Assembly (NCBI GenBank): GCA_016935365.1
Contig: JAFGRB010000178.1
Coordinates: 389 to 64,388, forward strand
Direction: 5' to 3'
DNA: 64,000 bases
DNA from: Deltaproteobacteria bacterium
Lineage (GTDB): Bacteria; Myxococcota; B64-G9
Shown here: positions 15,711 to 63,804 of the stretch, one piece after another
Layout: every line of letters begins with the position of its first letter
Position numbering within the stretch: the stretch's first letter is position 1
Program-made: the position numbers and the translations under genes
The notes under the pieces: model-generated
The model's input: the letters and a program-made list of their open reading frames with translations, nothing else
Told to the model about the DNA's origin: nothing
The model's database searches: none

Positions 15711-17357
15711 CTATCTCCGGCGCGCCAGAGCGGCGAGCAGCCCCAGCAGGGCGAGCGCGAGGTCCGCGTGGGCTCCGCTGCTCGCGCAGCCGCAGCCGTC
15801 GCCGTCTTCCGGGCGATCCCCGTCGGCTTGCGATCCGGCGTCGGTCGTGCCGGCGTCGGTCGTGCCGGCGTCGGTCTCGACGCCCTGATCCGCGCCGCCC
15901 GCGTCCGGAGCGCTGTCCCCGCCGCCGTCCTCGACACCGCCGTCCTCGCCGCCATCCGGGCCGCCGTCCGGCTCGACGCTCACGCTCTCGACCGCGAGCG
16001 TGTAGCTGGCCGCAGCCCCCTGGTCGGCCAGCAGCACCACGTAGCCCTCGGGCGCATCGGGGATCTCCGCGAAGGGCAGCTGTAAAGGCACGCCGTCTTC
16101 GCAGTCCGCATACCAGACCCGGGCCTCGCCCGCGAGCAGGGCCCGCGCCTGGACGCGCGCGCCGTCCACCTGCAGCTGCACGTCGGCGCCGGGATCGGGC
16201 CGGGCCAGGCGCGCGTAGGCCGCGCCCGTGCCGGTCAGGCTGGCCTGCAGCTCCGACGGGTAGGCGTCGATGCGGTGCGCGAAGCGCGGTGCGCCCACCT
16301 CCAGCAGCGGATGGGCGAGCTCGCCCTCCAGGCCCAGGTGATCTCCGAGCGTGGCCGTGGCCCAGTCGAGAAGCAGAGAGTCCATGGTCTCCTGGCCCGC
16401 CCGGGCGAGCGGGCCCGCGAAGCCCGCCCGGCCGTGGGCCGGGTCGGCCACCAGCTCGCCCATGAACCCCGCCCCGAAGCGCTCGTAGAGGTAGGAGCCG
16501 AAGAGCAGGCAGGCGCCGTAGTGCACGTGGGCGGTCTCCTCGAGCGCCGCCGAGGGATCGGCCAGGTAGTCGTCCAGCCAGGCCTGGTCGGTCTGCGGGT
16601 AGCCGCACAGCACCATGGCCGCCTCGGCGCAGGACTCGTCCACCCAGGACGCCTCCTCGGGATCGCCGCCCCAGTGGATCAAGTGCTGGAGCTCGTGCGC
16701 CAGGATCGAGAGCGTCATCGCCGAGCCCACCGGCCGGATGGCCGAGTTGACGGTGATCATCTCGATCTCGTTGGAGTGGTAGCCCTGCTGGGCCATGGTC
16801 TCCTCGTCCGGGTACTGGTTGAAGGGGTTGAAGAAGCCGTCGAACTGCGTGCCGCCGTACTGGTCGAGCTCCATCAGCAGGATGAAGACGTGCACGTCGC
16901 CGTCCAGCGCGTCCGGCACGGGCCCGAAGACGCCGATCTCGTTGGGCACGATGCCCTGCTCCGGATCGATCGATCCCGCGGGCGTGGCCAGCTCCAGGGC
17001 GGCGAAGACCGCATCCACACCAGCCTGGTCCACGTTCGCGCCCCACTGGTCGTCGGCCACGAAGACGTAGACGTGGTCGCCTACGGCCCGGCAGGTGGCC
17101 GGCACCTGCACGTCCCGGGGCGGCATCTGGCCCAGGTCCCAGGACCAGAACGAGCGCGTATCGCCCAGCTCGTGATCCGGCGCGCGCCGCCCGGGCCGCT
17201 CGCCCTGCCACTGCACGCGGAAGTCCACGTAGCCGCCCTGACGGATGAAGTCGTAGGCCGATCGCACCGCTGGCTCTGCGTGCGCCGCGCCCGCGAGCGC
17301 AGCGACGCACGCGATCGCCAGGCTCGCCGCCGTCTTCTTGCCTGTCCTCACATCCAC
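15711..17357 (-). CDS. Secreted HExxH zinc metallopeptidase with a MYXO-CTERM sorting tail
   Basis: Signal peptide; HELQHLIH...E; C-terminal GCGCASSG + hydrophobic stretch + RRR. Confidence 0.75.
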   Translation of the reverse strand: MDVRTGKKTAASLAIACVAALAGAAHAEPAVRSAYDFIRQGGYVDFRVQWQGERPGRRAPDHELGDTRSFWSWDLGQMPPRDVQVPATCRAVGDHVYVFVADDQWGANVDQAGVDAVFAALELATPAGSIDPEQGIVPNEIGVFGPVPDALDGDVHVFILLMELDQYGGTQFDGFFNPFNQYPDEETMAQQGYHSNEIEMITVNSAIRPVGSAMTLSILAHELQHLIHWGGDPEEASWVDESCAEAAMVLCGYPQTDQAWLDDYLADPSAALEETAHVHYGACLLFGSYLYERFGAGFMGELVADPAHGRAGFAGPLARAGQETMDSLLLDWATATLGDHLGLEGELAHPLLEVGAPRFAHRIDAYPSELQASLTGTGAAYARLARPDPGADVQLQVDGARVQARALLAGEARVWYADCEDGVPLQLPFAEIPDAPEGYVVLLADQGAAASYTLAVESVSVEPDGGPDGGEDGGVEDGGGDSAPDAGGADQGVETDAGTTDAGTTDAGSQADGDRPEDGDGCGCASSGAHADLALALLGLLAALARRR

Positions 17358-53528: not shown

Positions 53529-53920
53529 GCGGCCTGCGCGCACTGGTGTGTGACGATGACACGCCCTTTCGGACCATCGTCCGCGAGCTGCTCGAGCAGC
53601 GCGGCGTCGAGGTGATCGAGGCAGCCGACGGCCACGAGGCGCTGGCGGTCTTCATGAAGCAGGCGATCGATCTCGTGGTGACCGATTTCTTGATGCCCAA
53701 GCTGGACGGCATGCAGGTCATCCGCGACATCCGCATGACCGGCGAGCGAGGCCGGATCCCGATCGTGCTGATGTCGGCCATCTCCAGGGGCAACATCGTG
53801 GGCAAGGAGGAGCTCGGGCCCGACTACTACATGAGCAAACCCTTCAAGCCTAAAAAGATGGCCCGCTTGCTGGACAGGATCTTGGACAACATCGCGCAGG
53901 CGTCCTCGAAGTCGGGATGA
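53525..53920 (+). CDS. Single-domain CheY-like response regulator
   Basis: LVCDDD..D..MPKLDG..K receiver motifs; ATGA overlap upstream. Confidence 0.8.
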   Translation: MSGLRALVCDDDTPFRTIVRELLEQRGVEVIEAADGHEALAVFMKQAIDLVVTDFLMPKLDGMQVIRDIRMTGERGRIPIVLMSAISRGNIVGKEELGPDYYMSKPFKPKKMARLLDRILDNIAQASSKSG

Positions 53921-55689
53921 AGCTCTTTCGCGTGATATCCTTCATGCTCGCCTTCCTGACGGCCGTGCCGGTGGTCGTGGTCGGCATCATCCTGATCGAC
54001 AGCACGGTGGACATCTCCAAGACCTTGACCTGGGAGCTCCAGCAGGAGCGCGCCGACCACGCCAGCCGGCAGATGCGGGCCTTCTTCGAGAACTTCGCCG
54101 ACGACCTCGACCTGCTGGTCTCCAACCTGAGCGTGCGCAGCATGAACCTCCGGGAGCGCCAAGAGCTGCTGTCCTTCATCATGCAGAAGCGGCCCGAGAT
54201 CAACATCATCGCCTTCTACGACGAGCGGTTGCGCCCCTTGCGCAACCTCCTGGCCCTCGACTCCAACCGCATCCTGCCGAGCGAGCTGGCGCTGCACCAG
54301 AAGCGCATCGCGGAGGTGGATCTGGACCAACTCGATCAGTTCGTCTTGGCTTTCTCGGCGCCCTACGCCATCGATCGACAGCCCCGACCCGAGCTGTCCA
54401 TCGAGCGCCGTCAGGAGCGGGTGGTGGCCCTGCTGATGCGCATCTCCGGAGAAGACGCCACCTTCCTGGGCATGGAGCTGCAGCTGACCTCCCTGCAGCA
54501 CATGCTCGATCGCATGCGGATCGGGCTGCGCGGTCAGATGCTCCTGGTCGACGAGCGTTCCCATCCGATCGCCAGGAGCGCTGGCCGGGGCGTGTCCGCC
54601 GAGGACGCCGGGGCGCTGGAAGCCCAGCTCCCGGTCCTGCTGTACGGGCTGGGCGACTCGGCCTCCGCAGCCTCCGTCTCGGGCGCGCGGCCGGCACGGC
54701 TCACGAGCGGCCGGGACGTGCTGGTGGCCTACTCGGCGCTCTCCTGCCCCGACTGGCGCATCCTGTCGGTCGAGCTGCTGGACGACGCCTACCTCGCCTC
54801 TCGCCGGATGACCTGGCACGTGGTCTGGGTGGTCGTCATCAGCCTGGCCGCGGCGCTCGGCCTCGGCGTGCTGTTCGCCTTCGGACTCACCCGGCCGATC
54901 GGAAAGCTCGTGCACGGCTCGCTGGCCATCGCCCGGGGCCGCTTCGGAACCGAGCTCGACATCGAGTCCAGCAACGAGATCGGCGAGCTGGCCCACACCT
55001 TCAACTACATGTCGCGCCAGCTGCTGTACTACGACGACGAGAACAAGAAGCTGGTCGAGTCCTTGCAGCAGGGCTACCTGGAGACCATCCGGGCGCTGGC
55101 CAACTCGATCGACGCCAAGGACCCGTACACCCGCGGCCACTCCGGGCGGGTCACGCGCGTGGCGATCGAGATCGGCAAGGCCCTGGGGCTCCGCGAGGAA
55201 GAGCTGCTGGTGCTGCGCTACGGCGGGATCCTCCACGACATCGGCAAGATCGGCATCCGGGAGGAGATCCTCGGCAAGCGCTCGCAGCTGGATGACGACG
55301 AGCGCACCGTGATGCAGCAGCATCCCGTGATGGGCGAGAAGATCATCGCCCCGATCGACTTCCTGCAACCGGTCCGCCCTCTGGTCCGGCATCACCACGA
55401 GTGGCTGGATGGGAGCGGATACCCGGACGGGCTGGCGGGCGAGGACATCCCCCTCGGGGCCCGGATCCTCGCCGCCGCCGACACCTACGACGCGGTCACC
55501 TCCGAACGCCCCTACCAGAAGGCGGTGGACAACGCCGAGGCCATCCGGATCGTGGAGCGTCTGCGCGGGCGCCAGCTCGACCCGCAGGTCTGCGACGCGC
55601 TCATCGCATACATCCAAAACGAGATCGCCTCCGGCCGCCTGCGCCCCGAGCAGGAGATGGCTGGCTTCGGCGACCCGACCAGAGACTGA
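53917..55689 (+). CDS. Membrane sensor with HAMP and HD-GYP domains (c-di-GMP phosphodiesterase)
   Basis: Two TM helices and periplasmic region, HAMP, HD (HDIGK) ... HHEWLDGSGYP. Confidence 0.8.
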   Translation: MKLFRVISFMLAFLTAVPVVVVGIILIDSTVDISKTLTWELQQERADHASRQMRAFFENFADDLDLLVSNLSVRSMNLRERQELLSFIMQKRPEINIIAFYDERLRPLRNLLALDSNRILPSELALHQKRIAEVDLDQLDQFVLAFSAPYAIDRQPRPELSIERRQERVVALLMRISGEDATFLGMELQLTSLQHMLDRMRIGLRGQMLLVDERSHPIARSAGRGVSAEDAGALEAQLPVLLYGLGDSASAASVSGARPARLTSGRDVLVAYSALSCPDWRILSVELLDDAYLASRRMTWHVVWVVVISLAAALGLGVLFAFGLTRPIGKLVHGSLAIARGRFGTELDIESSNEIGELAHTFNYMSRQLLYYDDENKKLVESLQQGYLETIRALANSIDAKDPYTRGHSGRVTRVAIEIGKALGLREEELLVLRYGGILHDIGKIGIREEILGKRSQLDDDERTVMQQHPVMGEKIIAPIDFLQPVRPLVRHHHEWLDGSGYPDGLAGEDIPLGARILAAADTYDAVTSERPYQKAVDNAEAIRIVERLRGRQLDPQVCDALIAYIQNEIASGRLRPEQEMAGFGDPTRD

Positions 55690-57105: not shown

Positions 57106-57918
57106 TCAGAGCGAGAAGAGATCGCCCCCGGCGGGCCCGGCCTCGCCCTCCACGGCCCGCCGGTAAGCGTCCGGCTCGTAGAAGACCCGCACCAGGCAGA
57201 GGCCCTTGGCCGGCGCGCAGCGCCCGGCCCGGGTCCGGTCCCGGCCGAGCAGCAGCCCGCGCAGGCCCTCCGGCGAGAGCCGCCCCCGGCCCACGTCCAC
57301 GAGCGTGCCGGCCAGGTTGCGGACCATCTGCTTGAGAAAGGCCCGCCCGAGCACATCCAGGGCGAGCAGCGAGCCGTCGCGCACGAGGCCGATCCGGTCG
57401 ATGCGCCGCACAGGGCTCTTCGCCTCGCAGCCCGCGGCCCGAAAGGCCGAGAAGTCGTGCTCGCCCTGGAGATGGGCGCAGGCCCGCTGCATGGACTCCA
57501 GATCGAGCGGAGCGCGGATGTGCCAGCGCTGGCCGCGCCGGAACAGCGGCGGCACCCGGTCGTTGTGGAAGCTGTAGCGGTAGTGCTTGCCGCAGGCGCT
57601 GTGGCGGGGATCGAAGCCCGGCGGCGCGAGCTCGGCCTCGCGCACGACGATGTCGTCGGGCAGCAGGGCATTGAGCCCCTTGCGCACCACCTCCGGGCCG
57701 TGGCGGCCCGGCTCGTCCAGGACCACGACCTGGCCCAGCGCGTGCACGCCGGCGTCGGTCCTGGAGGCGGCCCGCGCCCGCCCGGCCGAGCCGGTGAGGC
57801 GCTCGAAGGCCGCCTCGATCGCCGCCTGGACGCTCGGCCCGTTGGGCTGGACCTGCCAGCCGACGTAGGCGCTGCCGTCGTAGGCGACGAGCAGGCGGAT
57901 GCGTCCGTTGCCTTCCAA
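57106..57918 (-). CDS. truA: tRNA pseudouridine(38-40) synthase
   Basis: [17 protein letters not shown]...RTDAGVHA catalytic Asp region; no ATG present, TTG start inferred. Confidence 0.8.
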
Positions 57919-57926
57919 GGCCGCGG

Positions 57927-59873
57927 TCAGAACTCCATCATCAGGCCGAACATGAAGGTCTCGTCGCCCACGTCGAAGTGGCTGCCGCCGAAGCCGTCCA
58001 CCCAGGACAGGGCGAACTCGGCGAAGAGATAGGTGTTGATGATGCCGACGCTCGTCTCGAGGTGCATGGCGGCCTCGTCGTCGAGCCAGTCCAGCAGCAG
58101 CTTCAGGCCGGCCGAGAAGTGCAGGCCAAAGATCCCGCCCTGGGCGCTCGAGGTATTGCCCTGGTCGTCGGTGTACTCGGCCACGTCGCCCACCCCGTCG
58201 AGCACCCACCAGAAGTAGTACGACAGCCCGCCCGTGACGTAGGGCACCAGGGGGATGCTCCAGCGCTCGGCCAGCAGGTCGAAGTGGTAGCCCGCGGTCA
58301 GGCGCACGGGGATGAGGTTGAAGACCGTGGTGTCGCTCGACCGGGCGCCCGACTCGGTCCGGCCCTTGCCCACGTACTGGACGAAGCCGATTGTCCCACC
58401 GGCGGTCACGGTCCCGAAGCCGCGCCAGATCTCGTAGTCCAGGCCCAGCTCGAAGAGCATCTGCGAGCTGCCGCCGAAGATGGTCTGGAAGGGCGTCTCG
58501 TCGTTGCCCTCGTCGAAGCCCTCGCTGTCGACGTTGGGATAATATGGGCCGAAGCGGATCTGGAGCTGGAAAGTCGGCTCGGCGCTCGAGGACGCGCGTA
58601 TGGCGCCCGGCATCGGGGGCTCGTCGGCCCGGGCCGCTGGCGGGAAGGCCAGGCCGGCGAGCGCGAAGATCGCGATCAGCGCGCAGGCCCGCCCGCGGAT
58701 CAGCCGGCCGAGCGCGCGCCGCAGCCCGTATGCGAGCAGCCCGAGCAGGCCGAGGGCCAGGCCGAAGAGGAGCCAGCCGCCCGCGCCCAGCCGGTCGAGC
58801 TCGGCCAGGGCCACGGCCGGTACGAGGCCCGCTCGCGCCAGGCTCCGGCACGGCTCGCAGTGCCGGATGGCCCGGGCCCAGCGGGGCCCGAAGCGGTAGT
58901 AGGAAGCCACCAGGCTGCGGCCGCCCTCGGTCTGCGAGAGGGTCTGGTCCCGAAAGCGCCGGAGCGCGCGCACGCTGAGATCGCCGTAGGAGCCGTAGGC
59001 GGCCGTGGCCACGAAGCAGAACCCGCCCGACTCATCGCCGCCCCCGCCGCGGTAGTACTCCCAGAAGTCGTCGACCGGCAGCGGGGTGGCGATCTTGCTG
59101 GCCGAGGGCTCGCTCTCGTTGTAGGCCTCGTCGTAGGCCGCGACCACGAACTCGTAGGCGGTGCCGATGGTCAGGCCGGAGATCTGGGCGTCGGTCGCCT
59201 CGGGGTCGGCCTTCTCCACGAACTGCCAGGCGTCGTCCGAGGCGTCCTCCTCGCGGTAGTAGACGAGGAAGCCGGCCAGGTCCTCGTCGGCCGGCTTCTC
59301 CCAGTACACCTTGATGTTCATGTCCCCCGGCGCGAGCTCGGTCAGCGTGGGCGCGCCCGGGGCCAGGGTGTCGTAGCGCAGCTTCGCCTTGGCGTAATAT
59401 GTATAGTTGTCGGTATTGTAAGGATAAACAATCTGGTCGATCTCGAACTCCCAGCGCGCACAGAAGTAGTAGTCCTGCTGGTTGCCGGCGGCGCAGTCGA
59501 GGCCCGCGATGTCGCTGAGGAAGAAATCCTCTCCGCTCTCGGGGTACTGGCCCTGGCTGAAGCTCAGCCCGATCTCGAGGTCCTCGCCGTTCTCCTCGGT
59601 CTGGCCGATCTCGATCGAGACCGAGGAACAGGTCTCCGAGGTGGACAGGAAGACGTCCGCGCTCTGGGTCTCGACCCAGGTGACCGACTGGCCCTCGGCC
59701 AGGCTGAAGTCGAAGCCGATGGCGAGCTCGTCCGGCGCGGCGCAGTCCGCGATGTTGATGTAGGCCCGGCCCGGGCTGGTCAGATTGCCTTCCATCTCGA
59801 AGGTGTAGTTGGTGGCACGGGCGGGCAGGCCCGCGAGCAGCAGGACCGGGAGCAGGATGCGTGTGGCTCTCAT
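57927..59873 (-). CDS. Secreted modular protein: FN3 domain, conserved GGFCFVATAAYGS...LRRFRD motif, internal hydrophobic/signal-like segment, C-terminal OM beta-barrel
   Basis: Signal peptide MRATRILLPVLLLAGLPARA; ends in the ...FGLMMEF terminal Phe typical of OMPs. Confidence 0.55.
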   Translation of the reverse strand: MRATRILLPVLLLAGLPARATNYTFEMEGNLTSPGRAYINIADCAAPDELAIGFDFSLAEGQSVTWVETQSADVFLSTSETCSSVSIEIGQTEENGEDLEIGLSFSQGQYPESGEDFFLSDIAGLDCAAGNQQDYYFCARWEFEIDQIVYPYNTDNYTYYAKAKLRYDTLAPGAPTLTELAPGDMNIKVYWEKPADEDLAGFLVYYREEDASDDAWQFVEKADPEATDAQISGLTIGTAYEFVVAAYDEAYNESEPSASKIATPLPVDDFWEYYRGGGGDESGGFCFVATAAYGSYGDLSVRALRRFRDQTLSQTEGGRSLVASYYRFGPRWARAIRHCEPCRSLARAGLVPAVALAELDRLGAGGWLLFGLALGLLGLLAYGLRRALGRLIRGRACALIAIFALAGLAFPPAARADEPPMPGAIRASSSAEPTFQLQIRFGPYYPNVDSEGFDEGNDETPFQTIFGGSSQMLFELGLDYEIWRGFGTVTAGGTIGFVQYVGKGRTESGARSSDTTVFNLIPVRLTAGYHFDLLAERWSIPLVPYVTGGLSYYFWWVLDGVGDVAEYTDDQGNTSSAQGGIFGLHFSAGLKLLLDWLDDEAAMHLETSVGIINTYLFAEFALSWVDGFGGSHFDVGDETFMFGLMMEF

Positions 59874-60256
59874 TCTTGCAACGCCTCTCTCTCTTCTGGC
59901 ATTGACTAGCACGCCAGGAGGCGAATACGCAAGCTTTGTGCCAGCCTGCCGCCGCCCGCGATCGACAAAAAGAGCCACACAATCAAATTGTTCCGCGCAA
60001 GAGAGCACGGCCCTGAAAGCGGCCGGCTTGCATTTCTGTCACAAGCTAGCCCCCCGCGCGCAGCCCGGCTGCCAAAATGTCAGGAGCGCTCCGCGCCGCC
60101 GGCGCAGCGCATCGCCTCGCATCGCGGATCGGCCCGTCTGGCAAGGAGGCGACGAGTGCCGCAGCGGAGCAACCTTCCGGTTGTGAGCATCGGCATGATG
60201 GAGCCGACGCGGTCCAGACGGGCCGAGGCGCGATGCGCCCGAGACGCCAGAAGCGT

Positions 60257-61285
60257 CTAAAGGTACTCGCAGATCAAGCTCTCGGCGATCTGGACCGAGT
60301 TCAGCGCCGCGCCCTTGCGCACGTTGTCGGCCACCACCCACAGCGCGAGCCCGGCCGGCACCGAGCCGTCGGCCCGGATGCGGCCCACCAGGACCTCGTC
60401 GCCCGCGGCCGCGTCGATCGGCGTGGGGTAGAGCTCCTGGGCCGCGTCGTCCATCACCTGCACACCTGGGGCGCGCTCGAGCAGCTCGCGGGCGTCCTCG
60501 GCACCGAGCGGCCGCTCGAGCTCGGCGAAGACCGCTTCGGCGTGGCCGTAGAAGACCGGCACGCGCACTGCGGTGGCGCAGACCGCGAGGTCCGGCAGGT
60601 GCAGGATCTTGCGGGTCTCGTCGACCATCTTGCGCTCCTCCCGGGTGTCGCCCTCGGGCAGGAAGACGTCGATGTGCGGCAGGCAGTTGAAGGCGATCTG
60701 GCGGGGGAAACGCTCGGAGACCAGCGCACGCAGGTTGAACAGGTCGATCGACTGCTTCTCGAGCTCGCGGATGCCGCTGCGGCCGGCGCCGCTGACCGAC
60801 TGGTAGGTGGCCACCACGACCCGGCGCAGGCCGGCCGCGTCGTGCAGGGGCTTGAGGGCGACCACCAGCTGGATGGTTGCACAGTTGGGGTTGGCGACGA
60901 TGCCCCGCTCGCTGTAGCCGGCCAGGTCCTCGGGGTTGACCTCGGGCACGACCAGCGGCACGTCGTCCTGCATGCGGAAGGCGCTGGTGTTGTCCACCAC
61001 CACGCAGCCGGCGTCGGCCGCGCAGGGGGCGAAGCGCTCGCTGACCGCGCCGCCCGCGGAGAACAGCGCCAGGTCGAGCCCCTTGAGCGAGCTCTCCTCG
61101 AGGGTCTCGACGGCGATCTCCTCGTCGCAGAACTCGATCCGCTCGCCGCAGGAGCGCTCGGAGGCCAGCAGCCGGAGATCGCGCAGCGGGAAGTCGCGCT
61201 CCTGGAGGATGCGGATCATCTCCCGGCCCACCGCGCCGGTGGCGCCGCAGACGGCGACGCGGTACTTGCGATCCGATCCGCTCAT
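60257..61285 (-). CDS. asd: Aspartate-semialdehyde dehydrogenase
   Basis: VAVCGATGAVG NAD-binding motif and the Cys active-site region. Confidence 0.9.
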   Translation of the reverse strand: MSGSDRKYRVAVCGATGAVGREMIRILQERDFPLRDLRLLASERSCGERIEFCDEEIAVETLEESSLKGLDLALFSAGGAVSERFAPCAADAGCVVVDNTSAFRMQDDVPLVVPEVNPEDLAGYSERGIVANPNCATIQLVVALKPLHDAAGLRRVVVATYQSVSGAGRSGIRELEKQSIDLFNLRALVSERFPRQIAFNCLPHIDVFLPEGDTREERKMVDETRKILHLPDLAVCATAVRVPVFYGHAEAVFAELERPLGAEDARELLERAPGVQVMDDAAQELYPTPIDAAAGDEVLVGRIRADGSVPAGLALWVVADNVRKGAALNSVQIAESLICEYL

Positions 61286-61298
61286 CGCGCTCCCGATC

Positions 61299-61688
61299 TC
61301 AGTCGCTCACCCGAAACGACCAGCGCGCGCCCTGCGGCATGCGGTTGCCGGCCCGGTCCCGCACGCCCGGCTCCAGCACGGCCGCGTAGCTCGCCCCGGC
61401 CTCCAGGGGCGTCAGCACCGTCATGTGGATCATGGCCTGGGCCTTGTCGCAACTCACGTTGCCGAAGAGGCTGTCCACGCCCGAGACGAGGTGGAGGATC
61501 TCGCCGTGGGACGAGCTGCAGTCGATCGGCTCGTCGAACCAGACCCGCACGGCCGGCTCGCGCGCGACACCCTCGGCGCCATCGGCCGGCTCGGTGCGCG
61601 CGACGGCCGGCGGGGCCGTATCCGGCCCCTCGGAGGCCTGCCCGCAGGCGAGGAGCAGGCAGCCGAGCGAGATCCAGGCAAAGCGCAT
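61299..61688 (-). CDS. Ig-like (SbsA/Big) domain lipoprotein
   Basis: Lipobox LLLACG; Ig-like beta domain. Confidence 0.5.
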   Translation of the reverse strand: MRFAWISLGCLLLACGQASEGPDTAPPAVARTEPADGAEGVAREPAVRVWFDEPIDCSSSHGEILHLVSGVDSLFGNVSCDKAQAMIHMTVLTPLEAGASYAAVLEPGVRDRAGNRMPQGARWSFRVSD

Positions 61689-61696
61689 GCGAACGC

Positions 61697-62497
61697 CTAC
61701 TGGACGCCGCCCAGGATGATGGGCAGGCCGTCCTTGCCCGAGCCGACGATGACCACCTTGGCGTTCTGGCTCTTGGCGAGCTTCTCGGTGGCCTCGATGC
61801 CCATGTAGCGCAGCCAGATGTCGTTGATGCTCTCGGTGATGATCCGGTTGCGCCTGGCGATGCCCTCGGCCTCGATGCGCTTGCGCTCGGCCTCCTGGCG
61901 CTCCTTGTTGAGGGTGAACTCCATCTTGAGCGCCTTCTGCTCCTCCTCGAGCTTCTCGTTGATGGCCACCTTGAGCTTCTGGGGCAGGTCGACGTTGCGC
62001 ACCAGGATGGCCTCCAGCAGGACCGGGCGGCCCTTGATGCGCGCGGTGACCTCCTTGAAGATGTCCTGCTCGACCTCCAGGCGCTTGGTGGAGTAGATCT
62101 CCTCCGGCGCGTACTGGCCGCCCACCTCCCGGGCGACCGAGCGGATCGAGGGCGCCATCAGCACGTCGTAGTAGTCGGGCCCCAGGGTCGTGTGGAGCTT
62201 GTACAGGTCGTCGGCCAGGGCCCGGTAGCGCACCGAGGTCTCCAGCTTGATGCTCAGGCCGTTCTTGGCCAGCACGTGCAGGTCCTCGTTGCGGTCCTGC
62301 GTGCGCACGTCGTAGGTGTACATCTTGTTCCACGGCGCGACGAAGTACCAGCCCTCTCCATAGGAATCCTCCTGGGTCCCGCTCCAGGCAGTCCACAGCA
62401 CCCCGCTCTGGCCCGACTCCACCTTGGCGCAGCCGGCCAGGCCCGAGACGGCCAGCAGCGCGAGGCAAGCGATGGCGGCCGATGTCCCGTGTCGCAT
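61697..62497 (-). CDS. SPFH/band-7 (prohibitin/HflC-like) lipoprotein
   Basis: Lipobox LAGC; SPFH domain with a coiled-coil tail. Confidence 0.7.
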   Translation of the reverse strand: MRHGTSAAIACLALLAVSGLAGCAKVESGQSGVLWTAWSGTQEDSYGEGWYFVAPWNKMYTYDVRTQDRNEDLHVLAKNGLSIKLETSVRYRALADDLYKLHTTLGPDYYDVLMAPSIRSVAREVGGQYAPEEIYSTKRLEVEQDIFKEVTARIKGRPVLLEAILVRNVDLPQKLKVAINEKLEEEQKALKMEFTLNKERQEAERKRIEAEGIARRNRIITESINDIWLRYMGIEATEKLAKSQNAKVVIVGSGKDGLPIILGGVQ

Positions 62498-62616
62498 GGA
62501 TCCGTCCTCCCTTCCGGGCGCCCCAGAGCGCCCTGTCTGAGCAGGGGCGACCATAGCACCGCCGGACGGGTCTTGTAAACGTGGAAGCCGCGGGGCGGAC
62601 GTGCGAGCATGGGCGC

Positions 62617-63804
62617 ATGCGATACCTCGACGATCGAAGGCCCGCCGCGCTCCTCGTCCCGCTCGCCCTGCTCGCCGCCCTGGCCTGCAGCCGGCAGGCC
62701 GCCGAGCGCCCGGATGTGGACGAGGCCATGGCGGCCCGCAAGCTGATGCTCGAGCTTTCCGATCCCGGCCCCTTCGATCTCGACGCGGCCGGGGCGAGCC
62801 GCTTCGCCGCCCTGTCGCTCGCGTGCACCGAGCGGGCCTGGCCCAACAAGCCCTCCCACGTCTACGAGGCGGAGGCCGAGCTGCGCCCGCCGGCCGAGCT
62901 CACCCCGGCCTTCTTCGGCTGCTTCGACTGGCACTCGGCGGTCCACGGCCACTGGGCCATGGCCCGGCTGCTCGGCCGGGTCGAGGGCCTGCGCGAGGCG
63001 GACGCGATCCGCGCGCGGCTCGACGCCCACCTGACGCCCGAGCGCCTGGCGCGCGAGCGGGACTTCCTCGCCCTCGAGCGCAGCCTTACCTTCGAGCGGC
63101 CCTACGGCTGGGGCTGGCTCTTCCGCCTGCACGCCGAGCTCGCGTCACACCCCGATCCGGACTTCAAGCGCTGGGCTGCCGCCGCGCGGCCGCTCTACGA
63201 CCTGCTGGCGGCGCGCTTTCGAGACTACCTTTCACGGCTGAGCGCGCCGGTGCGCGCGGGCACCCACCCCAACACCGCCTTCGCCATGAGCCACGCCCTG
63301 GACGCGGCCCGCAGCACGGGCGACGAGGAGCTCGCGCGCGCGGTCGCGCAGCGGGCCCGGGACTTCTTCCTGGCGGACCGGAGCTGCCCGCTCGGCTACG
63401 AGCCGAGCGGCGAGGACTTCATCTCGCCCTGCCTGGCCGAGGCGGATCTCATGCGCCGGGTGCTCGCGGGCGAGGACTTCGCCCGCTGGCTGTCCGGCTT
63501 TCTGCCGGCCGTGTCCTCGCCGGCCTTCGGCTCGCTCACCCGGCCGCCCGAGGTGCGCGACCGGACAGACCCGCGCATCGGGCACCTGATCGGCCTGGAC
63601 TTCCATCGAGCCTGGTGCCTGCGGGGCATCGCCCGGGCGTTGCCTGCGAGCGACCCGCGCCGGCCGGTCTTCGAGCGCCTGGCCCGCATCCACGCTGCCG
63701 CGGGCCTGGAGCAGATGGAGGGCTCGGGCTACGGCGGCGAGCACTGGTTGGCGAGCTTCGCCATCTACCTGCTGACCGACGCCGGCCTCCGCCCAGCGCT
63801 TTGA
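62617..63804 (+). CDS. DUF2891-family lipoprotein
   Basis: Signal peptide with LAALACS; conserved DUF2891 blocks (FGCFDWHSAVHGHW). Confidence 0.6.
   Translation: MRYLDDRRPAALLVPLALLAALACSRQAAERPDVDEAMAARKLMLELSDPGPFDLDAAGASRFAALSLACTERAWPNKPSHVYEAEAELRPPAELTPAFFGCFDWHSAVHGHWAMARLLGRVEGLREADAIRARLDAHLTPERLARERDFLALERSLTFERPYGWGWLFRLHAELASHPDPDFKRWAAAARPLYDLLAARFRDYLSRLSAPVRAGTHPNTAFAMSHALDAARSTGDEELARAVAQRARDFFLADRSCPLGYEPSGEDFISPCLAEADLMRRVLAGEDFARWLSGFLPAVSSPAFGSLTRPPEVRDRTDPRIGHLIGLDFHRAWCLRGIARALPASDPRRPVFERLARIHAAAGLEQMEGSGYGGEHWLASFAIYLLTDAGLRPAL

Follow-up and report, generated by a model that had tools for sequence, protein, structure and literature searches.

A single open reading frame in an uncultured member of the Myxococcota raises the question of whether one translation product can carry two envelope proteins and, if so, how they would be separated. 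The frame lies on the minus strand at positions 57927..59873 of a 64,000-nucleotide stretch of contig JAFGRB010000178.1 (the whole stretch is called the window here). It encodes 648 residues plus the stop codon, in which a passenger resembling SgmI (MXAN_2561) of Myxococcus xanthus is joined to a predicted outer-membrane beta-barrel of the MXAN_2562 type. What defines C-terminal sorting tags (LPXTG, PEP-CTERM, MYXO-CTERM and others) is their position at the very end of a protein. In the window protein, as in no fewer than 84 further cluster representatives, the tag instead lies in the middle of the precursor, directly against a signal peptide. To judge from its sequence, the window gene is the fused, CFI-tagged counterpart of the SgmI/MXAN_2562 pair, and its single frame likely arose when two neighboring, translationally coupled genes for envelope proteins naturally fused in frame. 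It is probable that both envelope proteins are obtained from one translation product by way of a membrane hairpin that looks built for cutting.

The frame itself had to be secured against the suspicion, already raised in the original prediction, that a sequencing error had merged two genes. Two-gene relatives do exist, and where genes share a 4-nt stop/start overlap a single-base insertion or deletion suffices to fuse them, so that a lost stop codon or a frameshift introduced by sequencing or assembly could imitate a fusion. However, a database search recovered about 50 diverged full-length homologues (600-720 residues, 33-55% identity, about 100% coverage); these come from numerous independent metagenomes and metagenome-assembled genomes (MAGs), and all keep the continuous frame. 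The source MAGs are labelled Myxococcales, Myxococcota or Deltaproteobacteria. The same fused frame was found in 84 of the 150 top-ranking cluster representatives of the barrel described below. Because of this conservation, the fusion is considered real. Moreover, a protein of 100% identity (P0001) is recorded by both NCBI and Logan, and the features of the junction are conserved and appear to be selected. An artefact has next to no probability.

When begun at an upstream GTG, the open reading frame extends over 57927..60008. Translation from the ATG at 59873 gives the 648-residue protein with the N-terminus MRATRILLPVLLLAGLPARA, and the homologues start at the same point in the alignment. The G+C content is about 68-70% across the whole window. 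Conservation was assessed in an alignment of 33 homologues with 31-55% identity, in which every module is conserved: the Cys-rich N-terminal domain, the FN3 domain, the CFI block, the first hydrophobic segment, the basic cluster, the second hydrophobic segment and the barrel. The alignment contains a near-invariant block, GGFCFVATAAYGS...LRxFRD...GR...YYxxGP, and the barrel ends in GLMMEF. The strings singled out in the original prediction are all present, namely GGFCFVATAAYGSYGDLSVRALRRFRD at residues 283-309, WLLFGLALGLLGLLAYGLRR at 367-386, ALIAIFALAGLAFPPAARA at 398-416 and the C-terminus ...FGLMMEF. Given their conservation and the profile scores of the barrel and the CFI box given below, these features did not arise by chance.

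The same alignment was used for an AlphaFold2 (AF2) model, which had a mean predicted local distance difference test score (pLDDT) of 84.9. The model consists of two beta-sandwiches (residues 19-168 and 176-262), a helical CFI region (288-361) that leads into a long helix (364-389), and eight long strands (435-647). The strands form an eight-stranded barrel at residues 434-648 (57930..58574, minus strand, as are all features of the gene) and, when modelled alone, the barrel resembles NspA, OmpA and OmpW. Residues 435-648 matched the MXAN_2562-family barrel model NF040596 over profile positions 2-208 of 208 with a score of 202.9 bits, compared to a curated cutoff of 100. The small transmembrane beta-barrel fold and the C-terminal aromatic residue that characterize the family are both present. 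By the curated criteria the domain is a member of the MXAN_2562 family, and its location in the outer membrane is predicted. A barrel had been anticipated in the C-terminal 235 or so residues; the fold was borne out and the C-terminus is not helical, although the barrel proper is shorter, about 215 residues.

Searching the PDB by sequence, with either the barrel profile or the CFI region as query, gave no significant match. Compared with other eight-stranded barrels (NspA, the N-terminal domains of OmpA and OprF, OmpW and PagL), the family is distinguished by having no detectable sequence similarity to any solved structure, by conserved short helices in two periplasmic turns and by its restriction to Myxococcota-like lineages. 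A helix with the pattern LLDxLDxxAAxxL at residues 594-609 (about 58047-58094) lies in a presumed periplasmic turn, and its residues L594, D595 and A602 are invariant or nearly so. Conserved helices in periplasmic turns are unusual for eight-stranded barrels and could form a partner-binding site.

The passenger begins with a signal peptide at residues 1-20 (59814..59873), as indicated by the sequence MRATRILLPVLLLAGLPARA and its alignment with the N-termini of the homologues. An N-terminal beta-sandwich domain follows at residues 21-168 (59370..59813), with AF2 strands modelled at a pLDDT around 90 and a match to NF045522, and an FN3 domain at residues 172-262 (59088..59360), seen in the AF2 model and in the Pfam fn3 match (PF00041; residues 184-257, E 1.8e-7). 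Thus, the signal peptide and FN3 domain proposed earlier were both recovered, but the additional beta-sandwich of about 150 residues between them had been missed. In this domain Cys44, Cys82, Cys127 and Cys138 are nearly invariant among the homologues. A Foldseek search of the PDB with the full-length model returned tandem-FN3 matches only. Residues 5-290 matched NF045522 (MXAN_2561_fam) over profile positions 2-283 of 304 with 97.9 bits and an E value of 7.6e-28. The match halts at position 283, before the tag; the MYXO-CTERM model TIGR03901 has no match in the protein, which carries a CFI box instead. Members of NF045522 are positioned directly upstream of an MXAN_2562-type barrel, a position that the passenger holds through the in-frame fusion. 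The first half of the protein can with reasonable confidence be regarded as an SgmI (MXAN_2561)-like surface protein, composed of a signal peptide, two immunoglobulin (Ig)/FN3-like domains and a Cys-containing C-terminal sorting domain. In current annotation, such proteins are labelled only as 'fibronectin type III domain-containing protein'.

The sorting domain is a CFI box at residues 283-361 (58791..59027), where the GGFCFVATAAYGS motif is followed by three Arg-rich helices, as indicated by NF041770, the alignment and the AF2 helices at 288-361. Residues 286-354 matched the complete NF041770 (CFI_box_CTERM) profile, positions 1-69 of 69, with 73.4 bits compared to a curated cutoff of 40. 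The invariant residues include G284, C286, F287, A289, T290, A291, G294, R308 and D309. As is characteristic of the family, and as in the unrelated proteins P0057 and P0060, the box is followed by a transmembrane helix (364-384) and the basic cluster RRALGRLIRGR. The 'internal sorting-like segment' of the original prediction therefore corresponds to the transmembrane helix and Arg cluster of a CFI-box-CTERM domain recognized by NCBIfam. The difference is one of position. By definition a CFI-box-CTERM ends the protein, whereas the window protein continues with a signal peptide and 230 residues; with 253 residues after the Arg cluster, the box would be C-terminal only after the proposed cleavage.

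Orthologous passengers, whether fused or split, carry either a MYXO-CTERM or a CFI-box-CTERM tag after the same lead-in, DF[WY]E.Y..GG...GG[FY]C. Because the two tags are interchangeable in orthologues, the CFI box likely belongs to the same functional class as MYXO-CTERM and is thereby linked to the MYXO-CTERM pathway. A second CFI box was not found within the window, and a literature search on the CFI box found no relevant paper. Elsewhere, four DUF2271-type proteins (P0058, P0062, P0064 and P0065) have the CFI box at their very C-terminus and end in ...LAPIIxxVK with no transmembrane helix or Arg cluster after it, indicating that the box also occurs without a membrane anchor. The fused homologue P0053 has a degenerate CFI box (GGVCLVTSTFG).

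The junction between the two halves was examined by hydropathy, which revealed exactly two internal hydrophobic segments, 362-386 and 387-416, with RRALGRLIRGR between them. The first contains the stop-transfer helix of the sorting domain (residues 364-384; 58722..58784), which coincides with the AF2 helix 364-389 and is conserved in 122 fused homologues. The Arg-rich loop (385-395; 58689..58721) is predicted to be cytoplasmic. It is followed by an internal signal-peptide-like segment (396-416; 58626..58688; ACALIAIFALAGLAFPPAARA) with an A-R-A site before Asp, and by a short linker (417-433; 58575..58625), which has a low pLDDT and, from comparison of the homologues, is predicted to be the N-terminus of the mature barrel. 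A signal peptide for signal peptidase I has a basic n-region, an h-region of 10-15 residues and a c-region with small residues at -3 and -1. The segment 385-416 follows these rules, with RRALGRLIRGR as n-region, ALIAIFALAGLAF as h-region and PPAARA preceding the Asp as c-region.

Junction statistics were compiled for 122 fused proteins, with the 99 N-terminal signal peptides of split barrel genes as reference. The median loop between the hydrophobic cores is 8-9 residues long and contains 4-5 Lys or Arg; at least three Lys or Arg are present in 115 of the 122 proteins, and acidic residues are absent from 107. The second segment ends in A-x-A in 104/122 fused proteins compared to 83/99 genuine signal peptides, a frequency that upholds the second signal-peptide-like stretch noted earlier, and in small-x-small in 121/122 compared to 98/99. 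Pro or Gly is usual just before the cut site (PPAARA, GAAPAMA, GAGPVRA), and no more than about 21 residues separate the predicted cut from the barrel. Between codons 385 and 421 the window gene has no ATG, GTG or TTG in frame, which excludes separate translation of a barrel with its signal peptide. In two homologues, P0053 and P0047, the basic loop between the hydrophobic segments is much longer, 40-50 residues, and rich in Arg and Ser.

The distribution of fused and split forms was determined by searching 1.84 billion cluster representatives with a barrel-only profile. There were 716 matches with E<=1e-30, and the best 150 were classified. Fused architectures, with at least 300 residues upstream of the barrel, accounted for 84, whereas 42 consisted of the barrel only and 24 had 81-299 residues upstream (N-truncated fragments or other architectures); the ranking favors the query clade, and these proportions are not to be generalized. 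The tag of the fused representatives was a CFI box in 45, a MYXO-CTERM-like Cys-transmembrane-Arg-Arg tag in 36 and something else in 3.

Among the relatives, the split falls where the two hydrophobic segments of the window protein meet. The original prediction had asked whether homologues divide at the internal signal, and they do so at exactly this point in loci L001, L004, L014 and L015. In loci L001-L003 and L004-L006, a passenger gene of 422-439 residues encodes FN3, the CFI box, the transmembrane helix and a tail such as ...RRRSRARRAS, and its stop codon shares the sequence ATGA with the start codon of a barrel gene of 239-254 residues. The split barrel of this group has its own signal peptide (MRTPAILAALLVLSAPAASLA, followed by DD...). 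In the Polyangia-type loci L014 and L015, the product of the upstream gene terminates in a canonical MYXO-CTERM (GGGFCAVGG, transmembrane helix, RRRR), and the overlap with the barrel gene is GTGA or ATGA. The two-gene relatives are the more distant ones; they occupy the same place, in the order asd, passenger, barrel, truA outside the Polyangia loci. Given an ancestral 4-nt overlap, a single-base insertion or deletion could fuse the two genes in frame. Consistent with this, fused forms occur with both tag types and are scattered over a crude tree of the barrel. In this neighbor-joining tree of 223 barrel domains, at least 24 changes between fused and split were required compared to about 73 for shuffled labels, the absolute number being soft. 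Some of the 'split' entries in the tree, P0211 for example, are probably truncated gene calls. The recurrent fusion is strong genomic evidence for joint action of SgmI-type surface proteins and MXAN_2562-type barrels.

These features suggest how the precursor may be processed. The N-terminal signal peptide would start Sec export of the passenger, and the transmembrane helix of the sorting domain (364-384) would stop transfer. By the positive-inside rule, the Arg loop (385-395) is expected to stay in the cytoplasm, where it may have two roles, as basic tail of the tag and as n-region of the signal peptide that follows. Segment 396-416 would then re-initiate export as an internal signal peptide, so that the two segments form a hairpin in the inner membrane. 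A cut by signal peptidase I after A-R-A(416) would free the barrel into the periplasm with the mature N-terminus DEPPMPG..., and the barrel, ending in Phe, would be inserted into the outer membrane by the barrel assembly machinery (BAM). The passenger would be left with a normal tag of Cys motif, transmembrane helix and basic tail, to be processed by the tag's own enzyme. By analogy to MYXO-CTERM, the Cys may be lipidated, an intramembrane protease may cleave the tag, and the passenger may be delivered to the cell surface. The outcome would be the same two proteins that split loci yield, in a fixed 1:1 ratio. It appears probable that the fused gene encodes two envelope proteins that are released by signal peptidase I and a sorting protease in this way. 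A passenger and its anchor in a single polypeptide had been envisaged originally. The fused passenger and barrel and the sorting domain are indeed there, but an eight-stranded barrel does not qualify as a translocator of the autotransporter type; its role as an 'anchor' for the passenger, like the cleavage at the internal site, is putative.

Several observations weigh against this scheme of double processing. The topology and both cleavages are derived from sequence rules, and the AF2 confidence is low at residues 390-430, leaving the hairpin without structural support. After the cut by signal peptidase I the passenger would carry two transmembrane segments, not one, and its acceptance by a sorting protease is in question. 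The CFI domain is strongly basic, yet it would be periplasmic in the proposed model. To our knowledge, no enzyme that processes CFI-box-CTERM has been identified experimentally. In addition, the passenger score of 97.9 bits is below the curated equivalog cutoff of 150 bits for NF045522, although the proteins are homologous nonetheless.

The alternatives differ in what becomes of the polypeptide at the junction. It might not be cut at all, and the inner-membrane hairpin and outer-membrane barrel would then bridge both membranes, tethering the layers of the envelope or holding the FN3 part in the periplasm. The strong conservation of the fusion could mean that physical linkage matters, and the cleavage assumed in the double-processing scheme is itself predicted. 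However, the stretch of at most about 21 residues from the second hydrophobic segment to the first barrel strand is too short to cross the periplasm, the split orthologues at this locus function as a pair of individual proteins, and A-x-A ends the second segment as often as it ends true signal peptides. An uncut tether is unlikely. An arrangement of the autotransporter (type V) kind, in which the C-terminal barrel moves the FN3 passenger across the outer membrane, would account for the order of passenger and barrel in one polypeptide and for the aromatic C-terminal residue. Type V systems have 12 strands, or 16 with POTRA domains, and a passenger linker that runs through the pore, whereas the window protein has eight strands, like NspA, OmpA and OmpW, and a transmembrane hairpin with a cytoplasmic-type Arg loop between its two parts. 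Moreover, the passenger has its own sorting tag, and the orthologues are separate genes. We consider this explanation extremely improbable; the inability of an eight-stranded barrel to act as a translocator tells against it, as the short linker tells against the tether.

It was also considered whether the barrel is produced separately, either by internal initiation or by the sorting-tag protease alone, without signal peptidase I. The ancestral genes were translationally coupled through overlapping stop and start codons, and in some fused homologues the loop still contains a Met. In the window gene, however, the first Met after codon 385 is at 421, beyond the signal-like segment, and export of a product begun there would not be possible. 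If the Cys motif were the only site of release, two helices would still hold the fragment in the inner membrane. Separate production of the barrel is accordingly very doubtful.

The pair formed by SgmI and MXAN_2562 is one of the closest known systems. According to a preprint, MXAN_2561 is SgmI, which came from screening with a transposon for social, type-IV-pilus-dependent motility (bioRxiv 10.64898/2026.08.28.747804, which cites Youderian & Hartzell 2006). The same preprint reports that the SgmI and MXAN_2562 genes are co-transcribed and that insertions in both give similar developmental fitness profiles. The M. xanthus arrangement is taken here from the NCBIfam models and this preprint, not from M. 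xanthus DNA; a single-protein scan for related loci found 7 MAG loci only and no cultured Myxococcus. Both systems combine two Ig/FN3-like domains, a Cys-containing C-terminal sorting tag and then a small barrel of the same NCBIfam family. The window protein differs in being one open reading frame, in carrying CFI-box-CTERM in place of MYXO-CTERM and in its passenger score below the equivalog cutoff (98 versus 150 bits).

The MYXO-CTERM tag is cleaved by the myxosortase MrtX in a Cys-dependent manner; lipidation of the Cys is predicted, and surface delivery involves the type II secretion system (PMC11980579). The window protein shares with MYXO-CTERM proteins, such as TraA with its partner TraB, the tripartite build of Cys motif, transmembrane helix and cytoplasmic Arg cluster, and in orthologues of its passenger a canonical MYXO-CTERM occupies the corresponding position, preceded by the same lead-in. 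In the window protein, by contrast, the Cys motif is separated from the transmembrane helix by Arg-rich helices of about 75 residues in all, and the tag is internal. The in-silico paper on myxosortases makes no mention of fusions or of the CFI box. The components are thus known families and the pair is known in M. xanthus; what is new is the fused, internally tagged architecture with its apparent design for double processing, of which no description was found.

A bacterial gene that gives rise to two envelope proteins has a precedent in the FbcH cytochrome b/c1 polyprotein of Bradyrhizobium japonicum, reported by Thony-Meyer et al. in PNAS in 1991. FbcH is reportedly likewise cut at an internal signal sequence after membrane insertion. 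Its proteins are unrelated, however, both products remain in the inner membrane, and it has neither a sorting tag nor an outer-membrane barrel. Literature searches on FbcH and on bacterial polyproteins with internal signal peptides found no relevant paper.

The fused architecture provides a test case from nature for how a single substrate is shared among Sec, signal peptidase and sorting proteases. A broader interpretation is offered tentatively and has somewhat less than even chances of being correct. According to this interpretation, a 'C-terminal' tag would act internally in an envelope polyprotein, a single cytoplasmic Arg loop would be shared by the tag, as its tail, and the following signal peptide, as its n-region, and signal peptidase I and a sorting protease would cut one precursor into a surface protein and its outer-membrane partner. 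CFI-box-CTERM might then be a long-form member of the Cys-lipidation/myxosortase-type class, and SgmI and MXAN_2562 might form an obligate 1:1 complex.

The fused gene is embedded in a block of housekeeping genes. The upstream neighbor is asd (aspartate-semialdehyde dehydrogenase; 60257..61285, minus strand) and the downstream neighbor is truA (tRNA pseudouridine synthase; 57106..57918, minus strand), both identified by Pfam and synteny, and truA by its sequence as well. The TTG start of truA (57916-57918) is 8 nt past the stop codon of the fused gene (57927-57929). Between 56123 and 62554, the minus-strand order assigned with Pfam is SPFH (61697-62554), asd, the fused gene, truA, rplM and rpsI. 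In all loci examined, whether fused or split and including L014 and L015, truA was the next gene downstream. The asd gene was upstream in L001-L005 and L007-L013; L006 begins at the passenger gene and has no upstream DNA, and in L014 and L015 genes for MoxR, DUF58 and transglutaminase proteins take the place of asd. This conserved neighborhood hints at a core envelope role for the pair and not that of an accessory adhesin.

Other genes of the window were also noted. A 548-residue secreted protein encoded at 15711-17357 (minus strand) has a canonical MYXO-CTERM end, ...DGDGCGCASSGAHADLALALLGLLAALARRR, which scored 21.6 bits with TIGR03901 compared to a cutoff of 20, indicating that the same genome uses both MYXO-CTERM and CFI-box-CTERM tags. 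The protein also matched the MXAN_6640 HExxH metalloprotease family, but weakly. Between asd and the SPFH gene lies the gene for a small, lipoprotein-like protein of the Big_5 (bacterial Ig-like) type (61299-61685, minus strand), and a DUF2891 protein is encoded beyond the SPFH gene (62581-63804, plus strand). Just downstream of rpsI, on the opposite strand, a gene at 53917-55689 (plus strand) encodes a likely sensor of the cyclic di-GMP phosphodiesterase type, a membrane protein in which dCache, HAMP and HD-GYP (HD_5) domains are combined.

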